Origin: Pristiophorus japonicus
Lineage: Eukaryota
DNA: 64,000 nucleotides
Assembly (NCBI RefSeq): GCF_044704955.1
Contig: NC_091980.1
Span: forward strand, 78,554,001 to 78,618,000
Direction: 5' to 3'
The notes below the pieces were generated by a model. The model saw only the letters and a program-made list of their open reading frames with translations. It made no database searches and was not told where the DNA came from. A program made the translations under genes and the position numbers. Below are positions 39,277-64,000 of the stretch, in pieces. How positions within the stretch are numbered: the first letter of the stretch is position 1; each line of letters opens with the position of its first letter.

Positions 39277-41729
39277 GGCTAGGGAAGAAGGGGTTAGGAG
39301 TGTTTGACACTCACAGGTGCCTCACAGGCTAGGCATAAGCTGTGGGGATGCACGAGTCTCAAAACCCCCTCCATAATTTGTGGACACAGTCTCTCCAGGG
39401 GTGCTCTTGCAGCACTCAGGGTACCTCCCAGGCCAGGCATAAGCTGTGAGGGCAGAAGCCCAGAGAGAGACACCCAAGGCACAAAAGCACTCCCCGAGAA
39501 CTCCTTACAGTAGCTCCCACCGCCTTATTGCCTGGAGCCGACTGCGCCAGGGAGCAGAGGCATGAACCAGCCGGCTGGCGGTGTGCTACTTAAATGGATG
39601 TGCCGCAGCTGTCAAGAAACTTCCATTCCAATGAGTGGCAGAGAGCGTACGATGTATCTGCAGCCAAATAAAGGCTGCTTAGTCCCCGGTGTGTGTTCAC
39701 ACAGTGTGGGATAATGTGTATGTGTTCAGACAGTGTGGGGTAATATGTGTGTTTTCACACAGTGTGGGGTAATATTTGTACGTTCACACAGTGCGGGATA
39801 AGGTGTGTGTTCACACAGTGTGGGGTAATGTGTGTGTTCACACAGTGCGGGGTAATGTGTGTGTTCACACAGTGCGGGATAATGTGTGTGTTCAACATAG
39901 TGTGGGATAATGTGTGTGTTCACACAGTGCGGGGTAATGTGTGTGTTCAACACAGTGCGGGATAATGTGTGTGTTCACACAGTGCGGGGTAATGTGTGTG
40001 TTCACACAGTGTGGGTAATGTGTGTGTTTACACACTGCGGGGTAATGTGTGTGTTCACACAGTGAGGGGTAATGTGTGTGTTCACACAGTGTGGGGTAAT
40101 GTGTGTGTTCACACAGTGTGGGTAATGTGTGTGTTCACACAGTGTGGGTAATGTGTGTGTTCACACAGTGCAGGGTAATGTGTGTGTTCACACAGTGTGG
40201 GGTAATGTGTGTGTTCACACAGTGCGGGTAATGTGTGTGTTCACAGTGTGCACTAATGTTTGTATGTTCACACAGTGTGGGGTAATGTGTGTGTTCACAC
40301 AGTGCAGGGTAATGTTTCTGTTCACACAGTGTGGAGTAATGTGTGTGTTCACACATTGCGGGGTAATATGTTAGTTCACACAGTGAGGGGTAATATGTGT
40401 GTGTTCACACAGTGCGGGGTAATATGTTACTTCACACAGTGCGGGGTAAAGTGTGTGTTCACACAGTGCCGGGTAATGCGTGTGTGTTCACACAGTGCGA
40501 TGCAATATTTGTGTTCACACAGTGCGATGTAATATTTGTGTTCACACAGTGCGGGGTAATGTGTGTGTTCACACTGCGGGGTAATGTGTGTGTTCACACA
40601 GTGCAGGGTAATGTGTGTGTTCACACAGTGCGATGTAATATTTGTGTTCACACAGTGCGGGGTAATGTGTGTGTTCACACTGCGGGGTAATGTGTGTGTT
40701 CACACAGTGCAGGGTAATGTGTGTATTCACACAGTGTGCAGTAATGTGTGTATTCACACAGTGCGGGATAATGTGTGTGTGTTCACAGTGTGCGGTAATG
40801 TTTGTGTGTTCACACAGTGTGGGGTAATGTGTGTGTTCACACAGTGTGGGATAATGTGTGTGTTCACACAGTGTGGGGTAATGTGTGTGTTCACAGTGTG
40901 GGGTAATGTGTGCGTTCACACAGTGTGGGGTAATGTGTGTGTTCACACAGTGCGGGATAATGTGTGTGTGTTCACAGTGCTGGGTAATGTGTGTGTTCAC
41001 AGTGTGGGGTAATGTGTGTGTTCACACAGTGCGGTGTAATGTGTGTTCACAGTGTGGGATAATGTGTGTGTGTTCACACAGTGTGGGGTAATGTGCGTGT
41101 TCACAGTGCGGGGTAATATGTTAGTTCACACATTGGGGGGTAATGTTTGTGTTCACATAGTGCTGGGTAATGTGTGTGTGCTCACACAGTGCGGGATAAT
41201 GTGTGTGTGTTCACACAGTGTGTTTTAATGTGTGTATTCACACAGTGCGGGTTAATGTTTGTGTGTTCACAGAGTGCAATGTAATGTGTCTGTGATCATA
41301 CAGTGCAGGGCAATGTGTGTGTTTACAGTGTGTTCAATATGTGTGTGTTCACACAGTGCGGGGTAATGTGTGTGTGTTCACAGTGCGGGATAATGTGTGT
41401 GTACACACAGTGCAGTTAAATCTGTGTGTTCACAGAGTGGGGTAATGTGTTTGTTCACAACGTGTGTGGTATTGTGTGTGTTCACACAGTGCGGAGTAAT
41501 GTGTGTTTTCACACAGTGCGGGGTAATGTGTGTGTGTTTACAGTGGGGGGTAATGTTTGTGTGTTCGCAGTGTGGAGTAAAATGTGTGTTTTCACACAGT
41601 GTGGGCTAATGTTTGTGTGTTCACAGTGTGGGGTAAAGTGTGTGTTCACACAATGCGGGGTAATGTGTGTGTTCACACAGTGCGGGGTAATGTGTGTGTT
41701 CACACTGATACGTCCTCACTAAACAGTAT

Positions 41730-42959
41730 GGCCCCAAGTTTTGGCCCGCGCCGAAAACGGCGCACCTCCAAGCTGGACGCCTGTTCTTCGCGCCTAAAAG
41801 TGCGCTCGAAAAAAACTTTGATATTCTCCGGCTCCTCGGAGCTCGATCTCAGCTTGGTGCGGCGCGCTCTTCACAGCGGGGGGCGGAGCCAAACACTCGC
41901 GCCGATTCTGTAAGTAGTGGGGGGCGGGTCCAATTTAAATGAGCCAACGTGGTGCCGGCAACCCTGCGCGTGCGCGTTGGAGCGTGCGCGCATGCACAGT
42001 GTCAAACAAACATTGGCACTCGGCCATTTTTAAAAGGACTCGGCTGCCGTCGAGCCAGTGACGCCGCTCCTATCCCATGGCCGAATGGCCTCAACCCCCT
42101 TGAAAAGCTGCGTGCCTCCGGTGTTGATCCTTCGGCTGCTGGCCAGCCACTGACGCCGCTCCTATCCCATGGCCGAATGGCCTCAGCCCCCTTGAAAAGC
42201 TGCGTGCATCCGGTGTTGATCCTTCGGCTGCCGGCCAGCCACTGACGCCGCTCCTATCCCATGGCCGAATGGCCTCAGTCCCCTTGAAAAGCTGCGTGCC
42301 TCCGGTGTTGATCCTTCGGCTGATGGCCAGCCACTAACAGAATGAAGGCCTGCCTGCAGCACAGCAGCTCAGCTCGAAGGCTGCTTTCTGCCGCTGTTGG
42401 GGCTGCCATCGAGACACTGATGCCACACCCCTGCCTGTCTCCAACATGAAAGGCCTGCCTGAAGTACAGCAGCTCGAAGGCTGCTGCTGTTTCACACAGG
42501 TAGGAACATGGTTTATTTAATCTTTTCTTTGCTTATAAATTTTTATTCAGGTTAGATTTATTTGTATAATATTTGTATAAGTATAACTAAGGATTGATTG
42601 TAGAATTTAATGACTTCCCTTCCCCCCCTTCCCCCCCCACACCTCGTTCCCTACGCCTAATTTGTAACCTACGCCTGATTTTCTAAAATGTAGACAAGGT
42701 TTTTTCGAGCGTACAAAAATCTTCACTTACTCCATTCTAAGTTAGTTTGGAGTAAGTTTTCACTGCCGAAACTTTGAAAACAGGCGTAAGTAGCCGGACA
42801 CGCCCCCTTTTGAAAAGAAAATTCTGTTCCAAAGAGAAACTGTTCGAACTGACTAGAACTGGAGCAAACTAAATGCCGAGAATTTGAATTTCTAAGATAT
42901 TCCATTCTACACCAGTTGCTCCAAAAAATCAGGAGCAACTGAGGCCGAAACTTGGGCCC
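41730..42959. mobile_element. Non-autonomous TIR DNA transposon (PIF/Harbinger-like), 1230 bp
   Basis: TIRs GGCCCCAAGTTTTGGCC / GGCCGAAACTTGGGCCC; 3-bp TSD TAT/TTT, inferred from the empty site CAGTATAAATGC in the LTR B copies. Confidence 0.88.
42054..42335 (+). repeat. Three 92-bp tandem units inside the DNA transposon
   Basis: TGACGCCGCTCCTATCCCATGGCCGAATGGCC at 42059, 42151 and 42243. Confidence 0.93.
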
Positions 42960-44037
42960 TTTAAATGCACACGAGGCCCATGCTTGAGAGAAGGTCAGCC
43001 TGTGACCTATCCTTTATTCCATAGCACTCAAGTGCAGGAAGTGGGTGGAGCTTCCCCTTTTATATCTGAAGATCCAGGTTAGGAGTGTCTCCCACACGTT
43101 CACCACCTAATGGTTATTATTCTCACAGTGTACAACTTAGTTCAGATTAAACATGAGTTACAATGCTGGTTGAATACATGACACACACAGTGCAGGGTAA
43201 TGTGTGTGTGTTCACAGTGTGCGGTAATGTTTGTGTGTTCACACAGTGCGGAGTAATATGTTAGTTCACACATTGAGGGGTAATGTTTGTGTTCACATAG
43301 TGCTGGGTAATGTGTGTGTGCTCACACAGTGCGGGGTAATGTGTGTGTGTTCACACAGTGCGGGGTAATGTGTGTGTTCACACAGTGTGTTGTAATGTGT
43401 GTATTCACACAGTGCATGTTAATGTTTGTGTGTTCACAGAGTTCAATGTAATGTGTCTGTGATCATACAGTGCGGGGTAATGTGTGTGTGTTCACACAGT
43501 GCGGGGTAATGTGTGTGTGTTCACACAACGCTGGGTAATGTGTGTGTTCACAGTGTGGGGTAATGTGTGTTCACACAGTGCTGGGTAATCTGCATGTTCA
43601 CACAGTGCGGGTATTGTGTGTTCGCACAGTGCAGGGTAATGTGTGTGTGTTCACACAGTGCGGGGTAATGTGTGTGTTCACACAGTGTGTTGTAATGTGT
43701 GTATTCACACAGTGCGGGTTAATGTTTGTGTGTTCACAGAGTGCAGTGTAATGTGTCTGTGTTCATACAGTGCAGGGCAATGTGTGTGTTCACAGTGTGG
43801 TCAATATGTGTGTGTTCACACAATGCGGGGTAATGTTTGTGTTCACACAGGGTGGAATAATGTGTGTGTTCACACAGTGCGGGGTAATGTGTGTGTTCAC
43901 ACAGTGCGGGGTAATGTGTGTGTGTTCACACAGTGCGGGGTAGTGTGTGTGTTCACACAGTGCGGGGTAATGTGTGTGTTCACACAGTGCGGGGTAATGT
44001 GTGTGTGTTCACACAGTGCGGAGTAATGTGTGTGTTC

Positions 44038-45348
44038 TGTAACGTTCTGCAAAACCAACCACGGAGACATGTGGCAGGGAGAATGGGAAGATGCCATGTT
44101 TAAAATGACCAGCTGCAGCCTACAGCCTGTAAACCGCGGAGTATGATGGGACTCTGGCCACCCTGTACAGTAACAGACAGTGTTGCAGGGGCACAGAACT
44201 GGACGGGGGATGAGCCAGCTACCATAAGGGGGAAGAGTGTATATTCGGTTCTTCCAGGAAAATGGATACAAGGCAACTTTATATTTTAAAAGGACATTTC
44301 TCCAGCTTTTCATGTAAAACCCTCACAGAAGAGTCAACATGTCCAGGCAAAATCTCCCCAGTAATACACAAGACAACACAAAGGATATCAGTTTGAATAA
44401 TTAAACAAAGGCCCACAGGTCTGATGCAATCATTTTGGACAGCCCAGGCAGAGAGGTACCTCTATCGAGATAGTGAACAATCATCTTCAATCACTCCATC
44501 AGCGAGCGACAGGATACAGGAGGTGTGGCTAATCTCTCATTCCAGACAGATCGATACACATCAAACTGCCATTCACACCCCATTTTATTCAAGGAAAACC
44601 CAAGACAATGGCATGCAGTTTTGGCGCGAAGATGAAGGGACTATAAGAAAAAGCTGCAAAAACACACAAAGAGGTTTTTGGGAGTTGGAAGTTGGAGGTT
44701 GGAGGTTGGAGTCAGCTTTTGCATTGAGTTGTAGAGTTGAGTTAAGAAAGTGGGAGTCAGTTTTCGTTGTGGTTGAGTTGAGTTAAAGGGGAGTTGAGTC
44801 AGCTTTTCACAGGGCCCTCGCTCTGGGGAAGGTGTGCTTAACTCCAGCAGCTTTTTGCTTAGGAGCCAACCGAGAGGCAAATAGAAGAAACCGACGCAAC
44901 ATCGGGGAGGAAAACCGAACCGACCAACAACGTAAAACCCACCCCAGAGGGACCCCGAGCTGAAATAAGTGCTACAGAACCCCGGAGTTGATAGGATTGT
45001 GAGTATAGCCTAAACCCCCTCACAGACTCAATTTAGGATAGGAATTGGTAAGAAGGGTGGAAGTGGGAGGTGTGGTTGTGTGTGAGTGGAATGTTTCAAA
45101 CTCTTATCTTCCCCTTCCCTGTTGCGAGAATTTTTCGTGTTATCGAGCAAGATTGTGCCATTGCTGCTATTTACAACCTCTTCCTATGCCCTCTATCTTT
45201 GTGTTTACTATTCTAAATCAACAACATTAGCCATTTTGCACTCTTACCCGTTGTGTCTGGTGCCTTGTTACTCACCCATCCTCATAAATCGCACATACAG
45301 AACCTCAGGGGAGTGTGGATTCGAACCTACACCCCAAGCTCCCTTACA
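44038..45348 (+). repeat. 1.31-kb solo-LTR-like element, copy 1
   Basis: TGTAA…TTACA termini; TATAAGAAAA at 44642; GAGTTG-type repeats; no coding homology recognised. Confidence 0.8.
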
Positions 45349-46806
45349 ATACACATAGTGCGGTGTAATGTGAGTGTTCAATACAGTGCAGCGTAATATG
45401 TGTGTGTTCACAGTGCGGGGTAATGTGTGTGTGTTCACAATGCGGGGTAATGTGTGTGTTCACACATTGCGGGGTAATGTGTGCGTGTTCGCACAGTGTG
45501 GGGTGATGTGTGTATTCACATAGTGCGGGGTAATGTGTGTGTGTTCACACAGGGTGGAGTAATGTGTGTGTGTTCACAGTGCGGGGTAATGTGTGTGTAC
45601 AACACAATGCGGGATAATATGTATGTTCACACAGTACGGGATAATGTGTGTGTGGTCACACAGTGAGGGGTAATGTGTGTGTGGTCACACAGTGAGGGGT
45701 AATGTGTGTGTGGTCACAGTGTGGGATAATGTGTGTATTCATAGTGTGGGCAAATGTGTGTGTTCACACAGTGCATGTAATGTGTGTGTTCACACAGTGC
45801 AGGATAATATGTGTGTGTTCACACAATGCCGGGTAACGTGAGTCTGTTCAAACAATGCGGGGTAATGTGTGTGAGTTCACACAGTGTGGGGTAATGTGTG
45901 TGTTCACGCAGTATGGGGTAATGTGTTTGTTCACACAGTGTGGGATAATGTGTGTGTGTTCACATATTGCGGGTTAATATATGTTTTCACACAGTGCGGG
46001 TTAATATATGTTTTCACACTGTGCGGGGTAATATGTGTGTTCACACAGTGCGAGGTAATGTGTGTCCTCACACAGTGCGGGGTAATGTGTGTGTGAAATC
46101 ATACAGTGCGGGGTAATATGTGTGTTCACACAGTGTGGGGTAACGTGTGTGTGTTCACACAGTGCGGGGAAATGTGTGTGTGTTTACACAGTGCGGAGTA
46201 ATATGTGTGTGTTCATAAAGTGTGGAGTAAAGTGCGTTTTCACACAGTGCGAGGGAATGTTTGTGTTCACACAGTGTGGGTTAATGTGTGGGTTCATACA
46301 GTGATGGGTAATGTGTGTGTGTTCACACAGTGCGATGTAATATTTATGTTCACACATTGCGGGGTAATGTGTATGTGTTCATGCAGTGCGGGTTAATATG
46401 TGTTTTCACACAGTGCTGGATAATATGTGTGTTCATACAGTGCGAGTTAATGTGTGTTCATACAGTGCCGAGTAATGTGTGTGTTCACACAGTGCGGGGT
46501 AATGTTTGTGTTTACACAGTGAGGGGTAATGTGTGTGTTCACACAGTGCGGGGTAATGTGTGTGTTCACACAGTGCGGGGTAATGTGTGTGTTCACACAG
46601 TGCGGGGTAATGTGTGTGTTTACACAGTGAGGGGTAATGTGTGTGTTCACACAGTGCGGGGTAATGCGTGTGTTCACAGTGCGGGGTAATGCGTGTATTC
46701 ACACAGTGCGGGGTAATGTGTGTGTTCACACAGTGCGGGGTAATGCGTGTATTCACACAGTGCGGGGTAATGTGTGTTCACACGGTGCGGGGTAATGTGT
46801 GTGTTC

Positions 46807-48117
46807 TGTAACGTTCTGCAAAACCAACCACGGAGACATGTGGCAGGGAGAATGGGAAGATGCCATGTTTAAAATGACCAGCTGCAGCCTACAGCCTGTA
46901 AACCGCGGAGTATGATGGGACTCTGGCCACCCTGTACAGTAACAGACAGTGTTGCAGGGGCACGGAACTGGACGGGGGATGAGCCAGCTACCATAAGGGG
47001 GAAGAGTGTATATTCGGTTCTTCCAGGAAAATGGATACAAGGCAACTTTATATTTTAAAAGGACATTTCTCCAGCTTTTCATGTAAAACCCTCACAGAAG
47101 AGTCAACATGTCCAGGCAAAATCTCCCCAGTAATACACAAGACAACACAAAGGATATCAGTTTGAATAATTAAACAAAGGCCCACAGGTCTGATGCAATC
47201 ATTTTGGACAGCCCAGGCAGAGAGGTACCTCTATCGAGATAGTGAACAATCATCTTCAATCACTCCATCAGCGAGCGACAGGATACAGGAGGTGTGGCTA
47301 ATCTCTCATTCCAGACAGATCGATACACATCAAACTGCCATTCACACCCCATTTTATTCAAGGAAGACCCAAGACAATGGCATGCAGTTTTGGCGCGAAG
47401 ATGAACGGACTATAAGAAAAAGCTGCAAAAACACACAAAGAGGTTTTTGGGAGTTGGAAGTTGGAGGTTGGAGGTTGGAGTCAGCTTTTGCATTGAGTTG
47501 TAGAGTTGAGTTAAGAAAGTGAGAGTCAGTTTTCGTTGTGGTTGAGTTGAGTTAAAGGGGAGTTGAGTCAGCTTTTCACAGGGCCCTCGCTCTGGGGAAG
47601 GTGTGCTTAACTCCAGCAGCTTTTTGCTTAGGAGCCAACCGAGAGGCAAATAGAAGAAACCGACGCAACATCGGGGAGGAAAACCGACCGACCAACAACG
47701 TAAAACCCACCCCAGAGGGACCCCGAGCTGAAATAAGTGCTACAGAACCCCGGAGTTGATAGGATTGTGAGTATAGCCTAAACCCCCTCACAGACTCAAT
47801 TTAGGATAGGAATTGGTAAGAAGGGTGGAAGTGGGAGGTGTGGTTGTGTGTGAGTGGAATGTTTCAAACTCTTATCTTCCCCTTCCCTGTTGCGAGAATT
47901 TTTCGTGTTATTGAGCAAGATTGTGCCATTGCTGCTATTTACAACCTCTTCCTATGCCCTCTATCTTTGTGTTTACTATTCTAAATCAACAACATTAGCC
48001 ATTTTGCACTCTTACCCGTTGTGTCTGGTGCCTTGTTACTCACCCATCCTCATAAATCGCACATACAGAACCTCAGGGGAGTGTGGATTCGAACCTACAC
48101 CCCAAGCTCCCCTTACA
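46807..48117 (+). repeat. 1.31-kb solo-LTR-like element, copy 2
   Basis: About 7 differences from copy 1 (counted by eye); identical junctions. Confidence 0.8.
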
Positions 48118-48578
48118 ATACACACAGTGCGGTGTAATGTGTGTGTGTTCACAATGCGGGGTAATGTGTGTGTTCACACATTGCGGGGTAATGTGTGCGT
48201 GTTCGCACAGTACGGGGTGATGTGTGTATTCACATAGTGCGGGGTAATGTGTGTGTGTTCACACAGGGTGGAGTAATGTGTGTGTGTTCACAGTGCGGGG
48301 TAATGTGTGTGTTCAACACAATGCGGGATAATATGTATGTTCACACAGTACGGGATAATGTGTGTGTGGTCACACAGTGAGGGGTAATGTGTGTGTGGTC
48401 ACACAGTGAGGGGTAATGTGTGTGTGGTCACAGTGTGGGATAATGTGTGTATTCATAGTGTGGGCAAATGTGTGTGTTCACACAGTGCATGTAATGTGTG
48501 TGTTCACACAGTGTGGGATAATGTGTCTGTGTTCACACAGTGCGGGGTAATGTGTGTGTTCACACAGTGTGGAGTAAT

Positions 48579-49145
48579 AGAAACATAGAAACATAGAAAA
48601 TAGGTGCAGGAGCAGGCCATTCAGCCCTTCTAGCCTGCACCGCCATTCAATGCGTTCATGGCTGAACATGAAACTTCAGTACCCACTCCCTGCTTTCTCG
48701 CCATACCCCTTGATCCCCCGAGTAGTAAGGACTTCATCTAACTCCCTTTTGAATATATTTAGTGAATTGGCCTCAACTACTTTCTGTGGTAGAGAATTCC
48801 ACAGGTTCACCACTCTCTGGGTGAAGAAGTTTCTCCTCATCTCGGTCCTAAATGGCTTACCCCTTATCCTTAGACTGTGACCTCTGGTTCTGGACTTCCC
48901 CAACATTGGGAACATTCTTCCTGCATCTAACCTGTCTAAACCCGTCAGAATTTTAAACATATTTATGAGGTCCCCTCTCATTCTTCTGAACTCCAGTGAA
49001 TACAAGCCCAGTTGATCCATCTTTCTTGATAGGTCAGTCCCACCATCCCGGGAATCAGTCTGGTGAATCTTCGCTGCACTCCCTCAATAGCAAGAATGTC
49101 CTTCCTCAAGTTAGGAGACCAAAACTGTACACAATACTCCAGGTG
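48579..49145 (-). mobile_element. 5'-truncated CR1 in the satellite
   Basis: ORFs 48676-49020 and 48978-49253; (AGAAACAT)n tail. Confidence 0.93.
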
Positions 49146-49711
49146 CGAGGTAATGTGTGTGTGTTCACACAGTGCGGAGTAATGTGTGTGTTCACACAGT
49201 GCGGGGTAATGGGTGTGTTCACACAGTGTGGAGTAATGTGTCTGTGTTTGCACAGTGTGAGGTGATGTGTGTGTTCACACAGTGTGGGGTAATGTGTGTG
49301 TGTTCACACAGTGCCGGGTAATGTGTGTCTGTTCAAACAATGCGGGGTAATGTGTGTGTGTTAACACATTGTGGAGTAATGTGTGTGTGTTCACACAGTG
49401 CCGGGTAATGTGTGTCTGTTCAAACAATGCGGGGTAATGTGTGTGTGTTCACACAGTGCGGGGTAATGTGTGTGTGTTCACACAGTGCGGGGTAATGTGT
49501 GTCTGTTCAAACACTGCGGGGTAATGTGTGTGTGTTCACACAGTGTGGGGTAATGTGTGTGTTCACACAGTGCGGGCTAGAGTGTGTGTGGTCACAGTGT
49601 GGGATAATGTGTGTATTCACAGTGTGGGCAAATGTGCGTGTTCAAACAGTGCGCAGTGATCTGTGTGTTCAGAGTGGGGGTAACGTGTGTGTGTTCACAC
49701 AGTGCAGGGTA

Positions 49712-54209: not shown

Positions 54210-56396
54210 GGTGTGGAATTTTCTGGGGGCCATGAGGACGGGATTGGAGGCAGGTCAGGTGGGAACTTTGAAATATCTTGCAGTGAGTCGGGAACGCGCT
54301 GTCATCCCTCAGCCATGTTTGCCAGCACGGCAGCGATCCGAACAGCAGAAGCACATTAGCTAATTTAAACCATCAGACCCTTTGTCAGACCCTTAAGCGC
54401 CTTTTTCACCCTACCTTTCAAATTTTCCTGGCTGAGCACAGGAGTCATGCAGCTCGGGAACCACGTCTGTGAACCTGAGGCGGAAGTTGAGTAGCCATGA
54501 TACAGCTCATTGGTGCACAGCATAAAAAGTACAGCTGCTCACTTTCATCGGATAGATGCTGTGGCTGACTGCATTGCCAGCACAGATTTAGCTTTCTAGA
54601 TGTTACAAGTGTTTCCAGCAACATCGCCATCCAGTGTCACCTCATTAGTACAACCTATCTCACCATTGGCAGATTGCTTCCGTCATCTCTACTTGACCTG
54701 CCATCTATTCCATCGGCATTGATGCAGTTTATACTGTCTCACCTTGGTCTTCAGAATGGGACCACGATGAGCCCCAACACAAGCAGCACCAGCAATACCA
54801 ACAACAACATCACCAACTTTCTCCTCAACCATTGGATGTGGCACAGAACAGAGGACTGCACCATGCTGGAGGCAATACCCCTAACACCGAGTATACAGGC
54901 AGAAGATGCTTTTTTTAATACTTTCATGAAATGTGGGCATCGCTGGAAAGGCAAGCATTTATTGTCCATCCCTAATTGCCCTTGAGAAGTTGGTGGTGAG
55001 CCACATTCTTGATAACTGAATGGCTTGCTAGGCCATTTCAGAGGGCAGTTAAAAGTCAACCACATTGCTGTGGGTCTGGAGTCGCACGTAGGCCAGACCG
55101 GCCAGACCTCAAAATGATGGAGCAGCAGTGCCAAAGGAGGCTCAGGCTATCATGCCAGGTTGTCGCAGACATTTGAAGATTACTGGAGGAAGACCTGCAG
55201 CCCAGAGGAATGGGTGGACACACCTTACCAGTGGCTGTCCAAGTCACCGGCGCCCTCAAGTTCTTTGCCTCAGGCTCCTTCCAGGAATCTGCATCAGACA
55301 TTTGCGGCATCTTGCAGTTGGCCACCCACAGATGCATCACACAGGTCACTGATGCCATGTTTCACAAGTCAGCCAATTATATCAAATTTGCCACTGATGG
55401 AGCCAGTGTTACTGAGCGGGCGCTCGAATTTGCCGCTCTGGCTGGCTTCCCACGGGTGCAGGGCATCATCGACTGCACACAAGTGGCCATCAGGGCACCT
55501 CATCATCACCCAGGAGTGTTTATCAACTGCAAGGGCTTCCACTCCCTCAATGTGCAGTTGGTCTGCAACCATAAAAAGATCATCATCCATGTGTGCGTCA
55601 AACTCCCTGGTAGCTGCCATGACTCTCTCGTCCTGAGCCAGTCCACCCTCCTTCAGCTCTTCACTCCTCCAAACAGACTTACTGGCTGGTTGCTTGGAGA
55701 CAAGGGCTATCCACTGAAGACATGGCTCATGACACACTTGAGGAGGCCAAGTACTGAGGCCCAGGAGAGATATAATGAAAGTCACATGTCCACCGGATAT
55801 GTCATAGAGCAGACAATAGGCATGCTGAAAATGCACTTCAGGTGCCTTGACAGATCTGGAGGAGCCCTTCAGTACACACCAGCCAGGGTCTCCAAAATTA
55901 TCATGGTCTACTGCACCCTGCACATAGCACTGCAGATAGGATTAGCACTGCATGAGGAGCAAAGCACTGAGAGCTCAGCCTTTACAGAAACATTTAATAA
56001 AACATGCAAGTAGCTACCCTTGTGAATCTACTTGTGTTTCATCTTTCTCTTATGAATGCTTTTATGAGTTGCTACCCCTGTGGCTTCAGCAGACATAGAG
56101 GCAGCCTGCTCACTTCCCTGCTGTGACTGAACATACCCTTTTGGCAGACGTCCTCTGGGTTTTGGAGCCTGTAATGGCCCTGCCAAAATCTGCTCCTCGG
56201 CAGTGGGGGTGGCAATGGGGGAGAAGTGTGAATGCATTGAGAGCAGCCCCCATTTCCATGACCCCTCTCACCATCATTACTCTCATGGGCCACCCACAGT
56301 TCTCTGCTAGCAAGGAGCTGGAGAGCACATTGCTGCACAGCAGTGGGGACATGAGAACCCAATTCTATTTTTGACGTCCTTCCAGGAGAGGATGTC
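54210..56396 (+). mobile_element. PIF/Harbinger transposon: transposase (+) and 3' end of Myb/SANT gene (-); truncated by the ERV
   Basis: TIR-like GGTGTGGAATTTT; transposase ORF; 56030-56360 resembles 18230-18580; LINE-tail insert at ~54915-55108. Confidence 0.82.
55210..56013 (+). pseudogene. HARBI1-like DDE transposase, 267-aa open core (N-terminus disrupted)
   Basis: [61 protein letters not shown]. Confidence 0.92.
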
Positions 56397-56892
56397 TGAT
56401 GTAGAACCAAAATAAGGCTCAACACACAAGTCTGATAAAGAATCAAAAATAATGTTTATTTCTGAATACCTATAGCTTGGCCAAGGGAGCATGGCTAGAG
56501 TTTCCACAACGTTAGTGCCACCTCAACTTTTGGCTGCCAGCTTATAGCATTTAAAGCCAAAAACTGCAGTCCATGTGCATCACAAGTTTCATGAACAGAC
56601 CACAATATCCTCCGTGACATTTAGGAAATGTGTCTAGGCTCAACTGCATGGCATCTATTCTTAATATCAGCATCCTATTATTCTGTCTAGCTCTGCTAAG
56701 CTTGCTACCACATCCACTTGCAGGTGGCCTGCCATCTGATTGCTCTAGCTTAGTTGTTGCTGGGCAAATGCAACTTGACATCTGGTTTTTACCCAGCCTG
56801 CACCTACAATACTGGCTTGTCCATATTCTAAACAAATTTCCCAGACTGCAACACTATATCACTACAGTGGGCTTCTAAAAAGTCCCACTTCA
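56397..56892 (-). repeat. 3' LTR of the ERV (distal boundary uncertain: 56397 or 56372)
   Basis: TGAAGT directly after the PPT; minus-strand TATAAG at ~56547 and AATAAA at 56455-56460; ends …ACATCA. Confidence 0.65.
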
Positions 56893-57026
56893 ATCCCCCC
56901 TTTGGTCTCTGGCTAACCCCAGCCAATGAGACCACTAGAGCTAAGTTGTCTAATGCTTTAGACTTCCCGCCCCACTTGCAGTGATATCTGCCGGCAAGTT
57001 TGGGAGGTCTATTGCTTAACTGGGGT

Positions 57027-58035
57027 TTAAATTCCCCCATGCATCAACAGTCGATCTTTCTCTTGCATACGAGTGATTGCTTCAGCTTGCTGCCTATGTC
57101 TATGCTTCCTACAAGCAGCACATGTCATTATCAGCCAACACAGTGCCAAAATCAGTTGAACTGCCACCAATATGTGAGAAATGATATCTATCCATGGATG
57201 GATATTAATGTTCAATCCCCAGTTCCATGCCTTCTCATATCAGGGGGTACGCTGAAGGTCTTTTGCAATGTCCTTGCCCAGTTCGCACAGCTCCTGTTTG
57301 AGCACGTGATACCGTTTTATGCTAGCCAGCAGAGCATCCTTTATATCTCTCAGGTTCTCGTGCAGGTGGGGTATTGGTGCAGCCAGCTCACTTTCATATT
57401 GGGACACATCTTGTTTAATTTCGTCAGTCAGGTTTAGGGTAATGGTTTCTCGAGCATGGATATACGTCATTTGTGCTCGTCCAATTGTTACCTGTAGCCT
57501 CGGGGTGAAGCAGAAGTTGGGGTTAGTGATGTTACATTTATAAATACCATAGTCATAAGTTGGATTGTTGGTAACCACACAGTATTCCCCCTTTCTGTGG
57601 TAGGCTGAGTGGGTGTGTTCGGATTCTGATGGGCTTATTTCTAAGACACACCCAATGGTTTGATTAAATCCACATCCATCCTTACTTCCCCAGCCTACTG
57701 GATGTGGACATATAGTTAGGCTTCCTATCCTCTGGCACCCTGATAATGAGACTCCTCTCATGGTTCCGTTCCACTTGATCGCATATTGATCCATTGGGCA
57801 GTACCGCATGTAGTTCTCACCCCAGATTAGCCCCAGGTTTTCTACCTCAAACTGGGGGTGTGGTCCAGCCTCCATTTCCAACTTGAGTTTTTTGATAGTC
57901 TGGGTCTTCAAAATTCGGGTGTAACTCATCACCTTCAGCCCCATGATTTGAATTCTGGCTGATCATCCGGCCCCGTGCTGCTTGCCACAGGGGCAAGTGC
58001 CAAAGTATAATAAGTATCGCGATTTTCCAGTCCAT
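57027..58035 (-). pseudogene. env: env glycoprotein, F-protein-like, internally deleted
   Basis: Signal peptide MDWKIAILIILWHLPLWQAARG; Cys-rich ectodomain; heptad region; in-frame TGA at 57240; Trp-rich segment, TM helix and basic tail; splice acceptor TTTTACAG just before the ATG. Confidence 0.82.
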
Positions 58036-58073
58036 TCTGTAAAATCAAACTTCCCCCTAGATGGGGTATTCTG

Positions 58074-61028
58074 TTAGAGTCGTTTTAGCTGGGACCAGTG
58101 TTTCCACCGTCCTACTCCATTCATATCCATACATGCACACGTGTCCCACTGATCAATATCTCGTATGGTCTCGACCACTGCGGCGCGAATCCAGTTCGTC
58201 CCGGTAGCCCCTTAACCATTACTTTCTCCCCCACTGGGGGAAGATCTGCCATGGACTCTAGCTCTTCTTGTTCGTCCCTGCCTACCTGTCATTCTCTTAC
58301 TTCCTGTCTCATATGCTTAAGTTGCTTACTTAACTCCATTACATATCTCCTAATCTGATCCCGCAATGGGCCCACATCAGACCCTCCTGTGATTATAACT
58401 TCGAGTAATTGCATTGCCCGACCAGTCATGAGCTCATATGTAGTTAATCCTGTTGTCCGGTTAGGGGGGTGACCTTTGTCTCATCAGGATAGCAGGCAGC
58501 AGCTCAGCCCAAGCCTGTCCGGTTTCTTGGATGGCTTTTGACAGAGCCGTCTTTATTGTCCGATTCATCCATTCTACCAACCCTGAACTCTGCGGGTGGT
58601 AGGGGATGTGAAATTTTTGTTAAATGCTCAATGTGGTGCATAATAATTTTACCGCCTGCCCTGTGAAGTGGGTTCCCTGATCGGCGTCTATTTGAGTGGG
58701 ATGTCCCAGCGGGACATCACCTCCTCAGCTAAGATACGAGCTACTGTGGTAGCAGTACAGTTTCGGGTAGCAAAAGCTTCCACCCACCGTGTAAACAAAT
58801 CAATTATTACTAGACAGTATTTCTTTCCTCTAGAGCTTGGCAGTGGTCCCGTGAAATCAATTTGTATATTCTCCCATAACCCACGCGGCCGTGGTTGATG
58901 GGCCATTCTAATTTTAATGGCCTTTCCCGGATTATGTTGGGCTCATGTAATGCAATGCTGGCAATATTTAGCAATGTCTCGTCCCATGCCTGGTCACCAC
59001 CAATCTCTAGAGACACTACTGATCATGGCATTTCGCCCGGCATGGTTAATGCTGTGGTGCAGTTCCATGGGCATCTTTCTTATATAAGTGGGGGCTGCCA
59101 CTTTATCGTCCTTTCTCCACATGGAGTCTGGATCTGGTGCCCCTCCGTCTTTTTCATTCTGTCTTTTCTTCATCACTTACATCTGCATGTAATTTTACAA
59201 TGTCAATATCTTCTTTAGTAATCATACTACTTGCTGATTCCTCCCTCACTTCGGACGAGGCTGCTACTTCCTGTGCAGCCTTGTCCGCCACCTCATTACC
59301 TCTCTGGACATTGTCCACCACTCTCTGGTGGGCTTTAACCTTTATTACCGCTGCCTCGGTGGGTTTACTAGCTGCATCTAATTTGGCCTTCATGTTTGAT
59401 GGCCTCCCCACCTGAGGTGACGAACCCCCGCCTCCCCCAGGCGGTCATGTAGTCATGCACTACTCCAAAAGTACAGCGGCTGTCTGTGTAGATATTTGCC
59501 CGCTTGCCTTCAGCTAATTGGAGGATTTCTGTCAGGGCAGTGAGCTCTGGCACTTGTGCGGAAAGTCATCCGTCCAGTCTCCCACTTAAGATGATGTCAA
59601 GTGCTCCATTGACCACCGCCCACCCTGTATGTGGGGTCCCTTGGATATATTTGCGGGACCCGTCTACATAAAAGGTTAAATCAGGGTCCCCGAGTGGGAT
59701 TTCACTTATGTTTCCGGGTGAGTCTTCCCACTCTCGGGCGTGGTACTCATGGGGTTCACCTGTGACCAGGAGACCCTCTGCAGGGTTTTCACCTATGTCC
59801 TGTACTATTTTTATGGACTCATCATGGGGGGGTAAAAATGCCTCCCATTTAGCCCTGCGTACATTGGACACGGATTTTAGTTTCCCGGTGTTGAGCATTC
59901 CTACCAGAGTGTGTTTAGTGTGCAGTACAATCTCCCCGGTCATCACTACCGGTTCACTGACTTTCACTGCCCAAGTTGCACAGTCCAGAGCTGCCACACA
60001 CCGGGACAGACTGGCCGCCACGGGTGACTGTTGGATTGAGTAATAGGCTACAGGACGCATCCTGTCCCCATGCATCTGAGTGACCATTGCCCCTTAGAAT
60101 CCTTCCTCATTTTCGCAGTAAATGTGGAACGGTATGTCCATGTTCGGGAGTCCCAGGCCAGTTGCAGACATTAAGACTTCATTCAATTACCATATGCTAC
60201 GTCCTGCTCTGGGACCCATTCTACACTCTCTAGGGAGGATTTCCCTCCTTTCACTAATTTCTGTATTGGTTCTGCTGTGTCTGCAAAGTTGGCTATAAAG
60301 TTCCTGCAGTAATTAAAGAGTCCCAGTACTTTCCGTACCCACTGTCTTTGGGCAGGGCATGATTCTGATAGCTTCTTTCCTATCTTGAGACATTGTTCTG
60401 GTCCCTTGTGATATCTCATGTCCCAAATATTGTACCACTGTCTGTCCGATCTGGGCTTTCTTGGGATTGGCTTTAAATCCCACCTTTTGTAGGGTCACTA
60501 AGATTTCTATGAGAGCACCCGTGTGTCCCCGTTCATCCTCCGAGGCGATCACACTGGATGAATGTGCTTCTGTAAGGGGTTAGGTCCACTTTTTCTAGGG
60601 CTCGACTCACTATCCGGTGAAATATTGCCAGGCTATTGTGGAATCCCTGTGGCACCCGTGTCCAGGTATATTGGCGGTCCCCTACAGTAAAGGCAAATTT
60701 GTCCTGTGACTCCCGAGCCAGAGGTATGGACCAAAATCCATTGGCTATGTCAAGTACTGTGAATATCTTGTACAATTTATTTGACTGCCTCCCTGGCTTC
60801 AGGTTTGATTGGATATTGTTTATGAGGGGTGTGTTCGGGACCCGGGACAATGATTGTGTTGGTGTCAACCAGCCCGCAACCATATTTGGACCGTGCCCAC
60901 ATTCCATCAATCTGTAGACACACAGAGGCATACCCTTTTAATGTAGCCCAGTCCCTGGTGAGGAGTTGTATGCTCTCCACCTTTCCATGGTTGTCCAATT
61001 TATTTTGTTCCCCAAAGGTAGTAGTTTT
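58074..61028 (-). pseudogene. pol: Retroviral pol: RT, tether, RNase H, integrase
   Basis: KQYPIK, VLDIANGFWSIPL, YTWTRVPQGFHNS, LGLFNYCRNFI, RPVAYYS, FYVDGS, NIYTDS, IKVKAH, QIDFTGPLP, YHPQSSGLVE; YxDD codons deleted at ~60555. Confidence 0.93.
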
Positions 61029-63339
61029 AGAAACATAGAAACATAGAAAATAGGTGCAGGAGTAGGCCATTCGGCCCTTTGAGCCTGCATCACCATTCAA
61101 TAAGATCATGGCTGATCATTCACCTCAGTACCTCTTTCCTGCTTTCTCTCCACACTCCTTGATCCCTTTAGCTGTAAGGGCCATATCTAACTCCCTCTTG
61201 AATATATCTAACGAACTGGCAATAACAACTCTCTGCGGTAGAGAATTCCACAGATTAACAACACTCTGAGTGAAGAGGTTTCTCCTCATCTCGGTCCTAA
61301 ATGGCTTACGCTTTATCCTTAGACTGTGTCCTCTGGTTCTGGACTTCCCCAACATTGGGAACATTCTTCCTGAATCTAACCTGTCCAGTCCCATCAGAAT
61401 TTTATATGTTTCTATGAGATCCCCTCTCATTCTTCTAAATTCCAGTGAATACAGGCCTAGTCGATCCAATCTCTCCACATATGTCAGTCCTGCAATCTTG
61501 GGAATCAGTCCTGTGAACCTTTGTTGCACTCCCTCAATAGCAAGAATGTCCTTCCTCAGATTAGGAGACCAAAACTGAACACAATATTCCAGGTGAGGCC
61601 TCACCAAGGCACTATACAGCTGCAGTAAGACCTCCCTGCTCCTATACTCAAATCCCCTAGCTATTAAGGCCAACATGCCATTTGCCTTCTTCACCGCCTG
61701 CTGTACCTGCATGCCAACTTTCAATGACTGATGTACCATGACACCAAGGTCTCGTTGCACCTCCCCTTTTCCTACTCTGCTGTCATTCAGATAATATTCT
61801 GCCTTCATGTTTTTGCCACCGAAGTGGATAACCTCACATTTATCCACATTATACTGCATCTGCCATGCATTGCCCACTCACCTAACCTGTCCAAGTCACC
61901 CTGCAGCCTTTTAGCATCCTCCTCACAGCTCACACTGCCACGCAGTTTAGTGTCATCTGCAAACCTGGAGATATTACTCTCAATTCCTTCATCTTAATCA
62001 TTGATGTATATTGTAAATAGCTGGGGTCCCAGCACTGAGTCCTGCGGCACCCCACTAGTCACTGCCTGCCATTCTGAAAAGGAACTGATTATCCTGATTC
62101 CCTGCTTCCTGTCTGCCAACCAGTTCTCTATCCACGTCAGTACATTACCCCCAATACCATGTGCTTTAATTTTGCACACCAATCTCTTGTGTGGAACCTT
62201 GTCAAAAGCCTATTGAAAGTCCAAATACACCACATCCACTGGTTCTCCCTTGTCCACGCTACTCGTTACATCCTCAAAAATTTCTAGAAGATTTGTCAGG
62301 CATGATTTCCCTTTCATAAATCCATGCTGACTTAGACCAATCCTATCACTGCTTTTCAAATGCGCTGCTATTTCATCTTTAATAATTGATTCCAACATTT
62401 TCCCTACTGCTGATGTCAGGCTAACTGGTCTATAATTACCTGTTTCCTCTTTCCCTCCTTTTTTAAAAAGTGGTGTTACATTAGCTATACTCCAGTCCAT
62501 AGGAACTGATCCAGAGTCGATCCAGAGTTGGAAAATGATCACCAATGCATCCACTATTTGTAGGGCCACTTCCTTAAGTACTCTGGGATGCTGACTATCA
62601 GGCCCTGGGGATTTATTGGTCTTCAAGCCAATCAATTTCCCTAACACCATTTCCTTACTAATAAGGATTTCCTTCAGTTCCTCCTTCTCGCTAGACCCTC
62701 AGTCCCCTAGTACTTCCGGAAGGTTATTTATGTCTTCCTTCCTGAAAACAGAACCAAAGTATTTGTTCAATTGGTCTGCCATTTCCTTGGTCCCCATTAT
62801 AAATTCACCTGATTCTGACTGCAAGTGACCTATGTTTGTCTTCACTAATCTTTTTCTCTTCATATTTCTATAAAAGCTTTAGCAGTCAGTTTTTATGTTC
62901 CCAGCAAGTTTCCTCTCATACTCTATTTCCCCCCTCCTAATTAAACCCTTTGTCCTCCTCTGCTGAATTCTAAATTTCTCCGAGTCCTCAAGTTTGCTGC
63001 TTTTTTTGGCCAATTTATATGCCTCTTCCTTGGATTTAACACTTTCCCTAATGTCCCTTGTTTCCCACGGTTGAGCCACCTTCCCCACTTTATTTTTACT
63101 CCTGACAGGGATATATAATTGTTGAAGTTCATCCATGTGATCTTTAAATGTTTATCATTGCCTATCCACCGTCAACCCTTTAAGTATCATTCGCCAGTCT
63201 ATTCTAGTCAATTTACGTCTCATATCATTGAAGTTACCTTTCCTTAAGTTCAGGACCCTAGTCTCTGAATTAACTATGTCACTCTCCATCTTAATAAAGA
63301 ATTTTACCATATTATGGTTACTCTACCCCAAGGGGCCTC
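61029..63339 (-). mobile_element. CR1 LINE (2.3 kb) inserted between ERV protease and RT
   Basis: ORFs 62879-63136, 62210-62650 (KSPGPD, YLDFQ), 61994-62182 and 61125-61877; (AGAAACAT)n tail. Confidence 0.94.
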
Positions 63340-63488
63340 ACGCTTATTTGGACTTCTCGAAATTATTTTCCTCCCCTGGGGATCAATCAACGCTCCTAAT
63401 TGTTCTAGGAAGTCGATTCCTAATTGTACCCTCATTATTGGGATAGACATAAAATTGTGCGGGGATTAGAATCCCTGCCACCTCCAAT
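63340..63488 (-). pseudogene. ERV protease C-terminal fragment
   Basis: Translates, with one frameshift, as LEVAGILIPAQFYVYPNNEGTI/LGIDFLEQLGALID (the ILGxDFL retropepsin motif). Confidence 0.7.
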
Positions 63489-64000
63489 AGAAACATAGAA
63501 ACATAGAAAATAGGTGCAGGAGTAGGCCATTCGGCCCTTCTAGCCTGCACCGCCATTCAATGAGTTCATGGCTGAACATTCAACTTCAGTACCCCATTCC
63601 TGCTTTCTCGCCATACCCCTTGATCCCCCTAGTAGTAAGGACCTCATCTAACTCCTTTTTGAATATATTTAGTGAATTGGCCTCAACAACTTTCTGTGGT
63701 AGAGAATTCCACAGGTTCACCACTCTCTGGGTGAAGAAGTTCCTCCGCATCTCGGTCCTAAATGGCTTACCCCTTATCCTTAGACTGTGACCTCTGGTTC
63801 TGGACTTCCCCAACATTGGGAACATTCTTCCTGCATCTAACCTGTCTAACCCCGTCAGAATTTTAAATGTTTCTATGAGGTCCCCTCTCATTCTTCTGAA
63901 CTCCAGTGAATACAAGCACAGTTGATCCAGTCTTTCTTGATAGGTCAGTCCCGCCATCCCGGGAATCAGTCTGGTGAACCTTCGCTGCACTCCCTCAATA
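63489..64000 (-). mobile_element. CR1 3' end, running off the window
   Basis: ORF 63586-63990; (AGAAACAT)n tail. Confidence 0.93.

Follow-up and report, generated by a model that had tools for sequence, protein, structure and literature searches.

An old, broken provirus with SnRV-like pol motifs and a probable F-type envelope gene in a genome very probably of an elasmobranch

The window analyzed in this study is a stretch of 64,000 nucleotides (G000:C4:78554001-78618000) from a genome that was searched over 5.92 Gb. From position 56397 to its end, the window contains an endogenous retrovirus (ERV), every part of which lies on the minus strand. The element probably belongs to the snakehead retrovirus (SnRV) clade, and its envelope (Env) appears to be related to the fusion (F) proteins of paramyxoviruses and pneumoviruses. 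Pfam was searched with the separate open pieces of the window copy, and the insertions of long interspersed nuclear elements (LINEs) and the loss in the reverse transcriptase (RT) were defined by comparison with four other copies. The features, including the long terminal repeat (LTR), the transmembrane (TM) helix and motifs shared with murine leukemia virus (MLV), are as follows.

56397..56892, minus strand: 3′ LTR with TG...CA ends, 496 bp (comparison of the LTR pair)
56894..56903, minus strand: polypurine tract adjoining the 3′ LTR (direct reading; other 3′ LTRs are preceded by the same tract)
57027..58035, minus strand: env remnant with signal peptide, start of a type-A head, deletion, Cys-rich beta region, second heptad repeat, Trp-rich stretch, TM helix and tail
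58037..58049, minus strand: pyrimidine-rich stretch ending in CAG, directly before the env ATG (direct reading; same in L077 and L084)
58074..59150, minus strand: integrase remnant with frameshifts and stops (Pfam rve at 58691-58939, E 1.4e-08; pol stop at 58074-58076)
59150..59700, minus strand: second RNase H, broken, with SnRV/MLV-type motifs (motif comparison; Pfam RNase_H at 59157-59441, E 0.005, below the cut-off)
59700..60185, minus strand: tether, a degenerate first RNase H (Pfam RT_RNaseH at 59569-60090, E 1.6e-05)
60186..61028, minus strand: RT remnant with LDIANGFWS and PQG motifs (Pfam RVT_1 at 60536-60934, E 8e-15, and 60316-60576, E 6e-05)
61029..63345, minus strand: CR1-type LINE, 5′-truncated and non-viral, between protease and RT (RVT_1, E 8e-07; its flanks are contiguous in L053, L049, L048 and L030)
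63346..63489, minus strand: C-terminal fragment of the viral protease region (comparison with other copies)
63490..64000, minus strand: 3′ end of a second, longer CR1-type LINE inside the protease region, extending about 3.3 kb past the window

The name CR1-type for the LINE at 61029..63345 is our assumption from its ORF2 motifs and 3′ tail. A sequence-only reading made previously from this DNA had described a retroviral pol layout, and the Pfam matches bear this out: those to RT, tether, second RNase H (weak) and integrase follow one another in retroviral order. Its coordinates were also accurate, as 56397 is the end of the LTR and 63489 is the end of the protease fragment. In the same protease region, an RVP match was weak in L053 (E 0.023), and E was 1e-06 in L057 and 1e-07 in L055. 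In the gag region of L053, no plus-strand frame of at least 70 aa was found.

The previous reading had proposed to look past the window for the primer-binding site and the 5′ LTR, and both were found there. The 5′ LTR was located at C4:78622796-78623294, with 91.8% identity to the 3′ LTR (Kimura two-parameter distance 0.079; 0.059-0.105 across nine pairs). In all nine paired copies examined, the 5′ LTR is followed by an 18-base site with 0-2 mismatches to the complement of a tRNA 3′ end. This tRNA 3′ end has 120 exact matches in the genome, as compared with 0 for a control, and ARAGORN detected tRNA-Ser(GCT) at one of three loci examined that carry it. The site is a tRNA-Ser(GCT) primer-binding site, and tRNA-Ser is the predicted primer of the family. 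The provirus is flanked by GATGT and GACAT, which would fit a 5-bp target duplication with CpG decay. Among the nine LTR pairs of one family, target-site duplications were apparently 5 bp in five and 4 bp in four. If the mammalian rate of PMC7947760 is applied, the LTR divergence corresponds to about 18 million years; with the tenfold lower rate that PMC4422223 assumes for sharks, it corresponds to about 180 million years. The provirus is old, and its age is poorly fixed.

The element is a true retroviral provirus with the features of canonical retroviruses (Retroviridae other than lokiretroviruses): paired LTRs, a tRNA primer site, a polypurine tract, protease, RT, tether, RNase H and integrase in this order, env, and an RT that is placed inside the retrovirus clade. 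The window copy shows no sign of function: two LINE insertions as well as deletions and stops have broken it, and the provirus is dead. In its RT, approximately 185 nt are gone near 60770 and the YxDD motif is absent near 60560. The LINE at 61029-63345, this RT loss including YxDD, a loss of 1318 nt from env and the position of the 5′ LTR outside the window had not been mentioned in the sequence-only reading.

The open piece of env at 57027-57962 contains the Cys ladder, heptads, Trp-rich stretch and hydrophobic TM helix that had been noted from the sequence, with a single in-frame stop at 57240-57242. Neither a CX6CC nor an immunosuppressive motif was found in this piece or in its family, again as noted before, and the family gave no TLV_coat match either. 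Comparison with locus L029 revealed that 1318 nt are deleted near 57870 in the window copy. Lost with it are the furin site and the fusion peptide, both of which sister copies keep, as well as the F2 part, the first heptad repeat and the bulk of the head. The pyrimidine-rich stretch at 58037..58049 is likely a splice acceptor for env mRNA. The genome contains at least 150 related copies of env. Because the searches with env and with the tether each filled all 150 scored places (150 matches out of 150), these copy numbers are lower bounds. A deletion of approximately 740 nt, within the extent of the larger one in the window, is common to 11 of the 24 distinct loci with a type-A env start. Four copies with the 740-nt deletion (L043, L044, L046 and L062) have LTRs 84-93% identical to those of the window provirus, the closest among those tested. 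A defect shared by many copies points to spread without an own envelope, for which retrotransposition and complementation are mechanisms named in PMC10435555. The window copy therefore likely descends from an env-deleted sub-lineage that spread in this way.

Models of the Env fold were built from related copies, including the region that the window copy retains. The sequence-only reading had claimed a relationship to paramyxovirus and pneumovirus F, and the Atlas and fold searches agree with it. The best Atlas matches were Baculo_F and Fusion_gly clusters (0.92). In Foldseek, the top rows for the Env model were foamy virus Env and the F proteins of respiratory syncytial virus (RSV), human parainfluenza virus 3, human metapneumovirus (hMPV), Newcastle disease virus and henipavirus (E 1e-05 to 1e-03). 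In a VIA search, the top 9 of 48,161 chains were all foamy Env or F, and for the Cys-rich region retained by the window copy, modelled in a related copy, the top 11 were all foamy Env or F. The best structural match for both models was foamy Env (8rm1 and 8rm0); besides it, the F proteins of RSV, hMPV, parainfluenza and measles viruses ranked first. Two points weigh against this assignment: the Pfam search of the Env family gave no match to PF00523, and the models are of low to medium confidence only. Because of the model confidence, the F-type fold is only moderately supported. With this restriction, the agreement of the top ranks in four fold searches and the Atlas argues for a predicted class Ib (F-type) Env with an F-like domain I/II/III core. 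In BFVD, the Env model also matched the predicted Env proteins of walleye dermal sarcoma virus (WDSV; A4GTG3, E 1.8e-06) and walleye epidermal hyperplasia virus 1 (WEHV-1; Q9WHI8, E 1.7e-05). These matches, made with a low-confidence model, hint that epsilonretrovirus Env may also be F-like.

The F core carries four different types of N-terminal head in 25 distinct loci (11, 10, 2 and 2 loci). Between types A and B, the identity is 34% over 107 aa, and type C has no clear likeness to type B. Variation of the head on top of a conserved fusion core is what would be expected if the head binds a receptor. The swappable head is therefore likely a receptor-binding module, as judged from its sequence variation.

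The pol comparison was made with a natural 713-aa stretch from a copy with the same env type as the window. It aligned over its full length with the RT-RNase H of MLV and xenotropic MLV-related virus (XMRV) at 328 bits. In contrast, foamy Pol aligned over RT only (169 bits), and Ty3 gave 125 bits; a foamy-leaning control pol aligned with foamy Pol across both RT and RNase H. In the RT alignment in the supplement of PMC7947760, PFG is present in all 24 lokiretrovirus rows and PQ in all 27 canonical rows shown. The RT of the window family has PQG. In addition, the family has SnRV-like strings in RT (YTWTR.PQGFH.S..IFH, K.NPKK and LGLFN.CR) and in RNase H (DGSR..TGWA..SAQV.EL.AL and VKAH), and by eye the closest published row was that of SnRV, for RT and again for RNase H. 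The RNase H strings AG.G..W, CTDS.Y and KKVKGH, which characterize the published lokiretrovirus rows compared, at least six in number, are absent from the window family. The motif LDIANGFWS, which had been likened to that of spumaviruses, is present in the RT; its closeness to spumaviruses is not diagnostic because lokiretrovirus, foamy virus and SnRV RTs all carry a variant of LDIANGFW.

In the RT tree (70 of 78 rows kept), the six own rows fall into a shark clade (100/98). This clade lies inside a 37-row clade with gamma/epsilon-type pols (96/83) and outside their 17-row core (100/99). A grouping of the RT inside foamy-like ERVs or Gypsy, named in the sequence-only reading as an outcome against its proposal, did not occur in this tree: the 37-row clade excludes the foamy-leaning group and all Gypsy rows, and the RT lies inside a 44-row retroviral clade (100/99). 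Among the nearest pols from outside the genome are clusters that have members from Mustelus and Heterodontus. Because no named SnRV, lokiretrovirus or foamy virus row is in the tree, the SnRV label rests on the motifs, and the tree shows only nesting among retroviruses. From these results, we conclude with a probability of roughly 0.8 that the window element is an SnRV-clade orthoretrovirus with an F-type envelope.

The same genome contains a sister ERV family with a gamma-type env, which possesses TLV_coat (E 2e-14 and 1e-12), the immunosuppressive motif and CX6CC. Copies lie at L057:2136-3305, L054:7068-8183 and 19 further loci, and none of 103 records screened contains both env types. In a pol tree of 62 own rows, 29 rows with F-type env and 21 with gamma-type env fall into two sister clades (0.96 and 1.0); the other 12 rows, without env in the fetched stretch, are divided six and six between them. 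The mean pol identity is 74.5% within the F-env family, 83.5% within the gamma-env family and 70.2% between the families, in a sample that is not random: many F-env loci were picked by the env search and the remaining loci by the tether search. In the RT tree, the internal branch between the two families is only about 0.1 changes per site. One whole-env exchange therefore likely separates these close lineages, and the breadth of the F-type family favors F as the older state. Beside the F-env clade stands a third pol subgroup (L090, L099 and L102), whose fetched stretches revealed neither type of env; in L090, pol is followed by a different sequence.

As a tentative extension, F-type (class Ib) Env may be the ancestral retroviral envelope, which lokiretroviruses, foamy viruses, the SnRV clade and perhaps also epsilonretroviruses have retained. 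The shark genome would then preserve a record of gamma-type Env taking its place between two sister lineages, and of an F protein that changes receptor use by swaps of its N-terminal head. The opposite direction is less likely; in this case, an SnRV-clade ancestor with gamma-type env would later have acquired the F-type env from another virus with an F protein, such as a lokiretrovirus. An SnRV-related Pol with gamma-type Env has been published (10.1101/2021.11.23.469661), and the Env of the window family has motif likeness to lokiretrovirus Env. However, the F-type env family is old and wide, with relatives at 20-40% identity in five shark genera, one skate and three frog genera and with its four head types in this genome, whereas the gamma-env family is the tighter one, as expected for a later arrival. 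Moreover, no lokiretrovirus donor was found, either by a pattern search of the genome, which is a weak test, or among the six chondrichthyan genomes of PMC7947760.

Two further explanations place the element elsewhere among retroviruses. Membership in the epsilon-related class I ERVs (clade Mu), with an F-like Env retained from epsilonretroviruses, is improbable for the element. The WDSV-like string YTDSRYA.GVVHD in its RNase H, the joining of its family to class I pols in the RT tree and the matches of the Env model to the WDSV and WEHV-1 proteins would agree with this, but the family lies outside the 17-row gamma/epsilon-type clade and its RT has NGFW of SnRV, not NAFF/DAFF of WDSV, Xen-1 and MLV. 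A fish foamy-like ERV (clade Tu) would directly explain the F-like Env, and the best structural match of Env and the resemblance of LDIANGFW to LDLANGFW of foamy viruses would agree with it. This is very improbable: foamy Pol aligned over RT only and with half the MLV score, the foamy-leaning control lies outside the clade that holds the window element, and the extra Env domain is N-terminal here but lies between the subunits in foamy Env, as described in PMC11468914.

Least probable of all is the proposal of the sequence-only reading, a lokiretrovirus and the first in cartilaginous fishes: its dual RNase H layout is common to all retroviruses and so not discriminating, its F-like Env with an R-x-K-R site is no marker because foamy Env has the same fold (PMC11468914), and its F2 start GPPSGVVL resembles GPx[S/T/A]G[I/V][V/A]L near the N-terminus in six of eight lokiretrovirus Env proteins compared and in Loki-Str (a seventh is looser and one is without N-terminus), whereas PQG replaces PFG, the three RNase H strings are absent and SnRV motifs stand in their place, pol is nearest to MLV/XMRV over its full length while lokiretrovirus RNase H groups with foamy virus, the sister family carries gamma-type Env, and a tight lokiretrovirus RT pattern, a weak test, gave 0 matches in the genome. 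The claim that a gap in the lokiretrovirus host range is filled falls with this membership. The window element does not extend that host range, and the published count of lokiretroviruses in 0 of 6 chondrichthyan genomes (Fig. S1 of PMC7947760) stands.

For the source virus of the SnRV-clade family, the following working can be proposed. Reverse transcription would be primed by tRNA-Ser, integration would produce a target duplication of 4-5 bp, and Env would be translated from a spliced mRNA. Env is predicted to begin with a signal peptide and a variable head of about 200 aa, which a Pro/Thr-rich linker connects to the F2-like part. The R-x-K-R furin site and the fusion peptide come next, and after these heptad repeat A, the Cys-rich beta domains, heptad repeat B and the TM anchor. 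As judged from this layout only, furin-cleaved Env may fuse membranes by a class I hairpin mechanism, and receptor binding would likely fall to the swappable head.

The host is very probably an elasmobranch, in agreement with the earlier suggestion of a shark: two FBXO15 exons are 80% and 85% identical to a Heterodontus protein, and most of the env relatives looked up are from elasmobranchs. A total of 44 Env relatives was found; among 14 that were looked up, nine are from elasmobranchs and three from frogs. In the frog Mantella aurantiaca, cluster P0074 contains 16 members of the Env family, and the common length of 677 aa in 12 of the 15 listed suggests that they form a young family with multiple copies. 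Relatives are also present in Pelodytes and Xenopus tropicalis. In Chiloscyllium punctatum, a single 739-aa protein of the Env family (P0054), annotated as Ig-like, has a furin site and a TM segment and is a candidate co-opted env. Three shark gene models, P0062, P0065 and P0069 (fbxo15, Niban-1-like and cadherin-related 5-like), contain pieces of env, which may be either exonised ERV sequence or annotation artefacts.

Around the provirus, other elements are present. Upstream of the 5′ LTR lies an element with gag, RT and integrase pieces (L021:8744-9682 and L022:354-2267), which we take from its motifs to be of Gypsy type. A DDE_Tnp_4 transposase piece (window 55177-56013, plus strand, E 4e-32), presumably Harbinger-like, lies directly outside the 3′ LTR. 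The window region of approximately 39600-49600 contains long arrays of 27-29-nt repeats, and a 2.77-kb stretch is duplicated there with 98-99% identity.

SnRV-like ERVs are known from elephant shark (PMC4422223). Among the ERVs of Chondrichthyes, RTs of class III predominate (PMC11089739), and members of clade Huo, or the SnRV clade, occur across the vertebrates (PMC6001957 and PMC12193657). Recombination between pol and env has been published (10.1101/2021.11.23.469661, PMC8278194 and 10.1101/2024.07.05.601823), and F-like Env has been published for lokiretroviruses (PMC7947760), foamy virus (PMC11468914 and PMC12583693) and invertebrate Gypsy elements (10.1101/2023.10.26.564294). In the literature, where subscription journals and some supplements and datasets were poorly covered, we found no report in which an ERV of the SnRV clade or of a shark carries an F-type Env. 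Wang and Han set out four scenarios for the origin of env (PMC7947760) and later preferred independent origins, since canonical Env is unlike F (PMC9040795, in which canonical and lokiretrovirus Env are reported without detectable similarity). In PMC11468914, class Ia (orthoretroviral Env) is split from class Ib (F, spike and foamy Env). An orthoretroviral lineage with class Ib Env, whose nearest sister has class Ia Env, would break this split. Furthermore, such a close pair of lineages makes the direction of the env swap, and hence the origin of retroviral env, testable.

Four known systems can be compared with the window family. XtERV-S (PMC8278194) has a class III pol, a serine tRNA primer, a 5-bp duplication and an env of another class, like the window element; however, it is ERV-L-related, with tRNA-Ser(AGA/TGA) and a gamma-type TM, and is nearer to the sister family. 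Foamy Env (PMC11468914; 8rm0 and 8rm1), which is class Ib, shares the F-like core with an added, likely receptor-binding module; the module is inserted in foamy Env and N-terminal in the window family, and the window pol is not foamy-like. Lokiretroviruses (PMC7947760) share the dual RNase H and an F-related Env that has a signal peptide, an R-x-K-R site, a fusion peptide, a coiled coil and a TM and whose F2 strand starts in a similar way. Their RT and RNase H motifs differ: the second RNase H of lokiretroviruses is of group I, with foamy virus, whereas that of the window family is MLV/XMRV-like. In addition, the core of lokiretrovirus Env starts directly after the signal peptide, and the window family adds the head of about 200 aa and the Pro/Thr linker before it. 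Finally, the SnRV clade (clade Huo of Xu et al. 2018; CmiERV lineage I in PMC4422223) is like the window family in RT and RNase H motifs, dual RNase H and presence in cartilaginous fish. The published SnRV-related ERVs carry gamma-type Env (10.1101/2021.11.23.469661), in contrast to the F-type Env described here.

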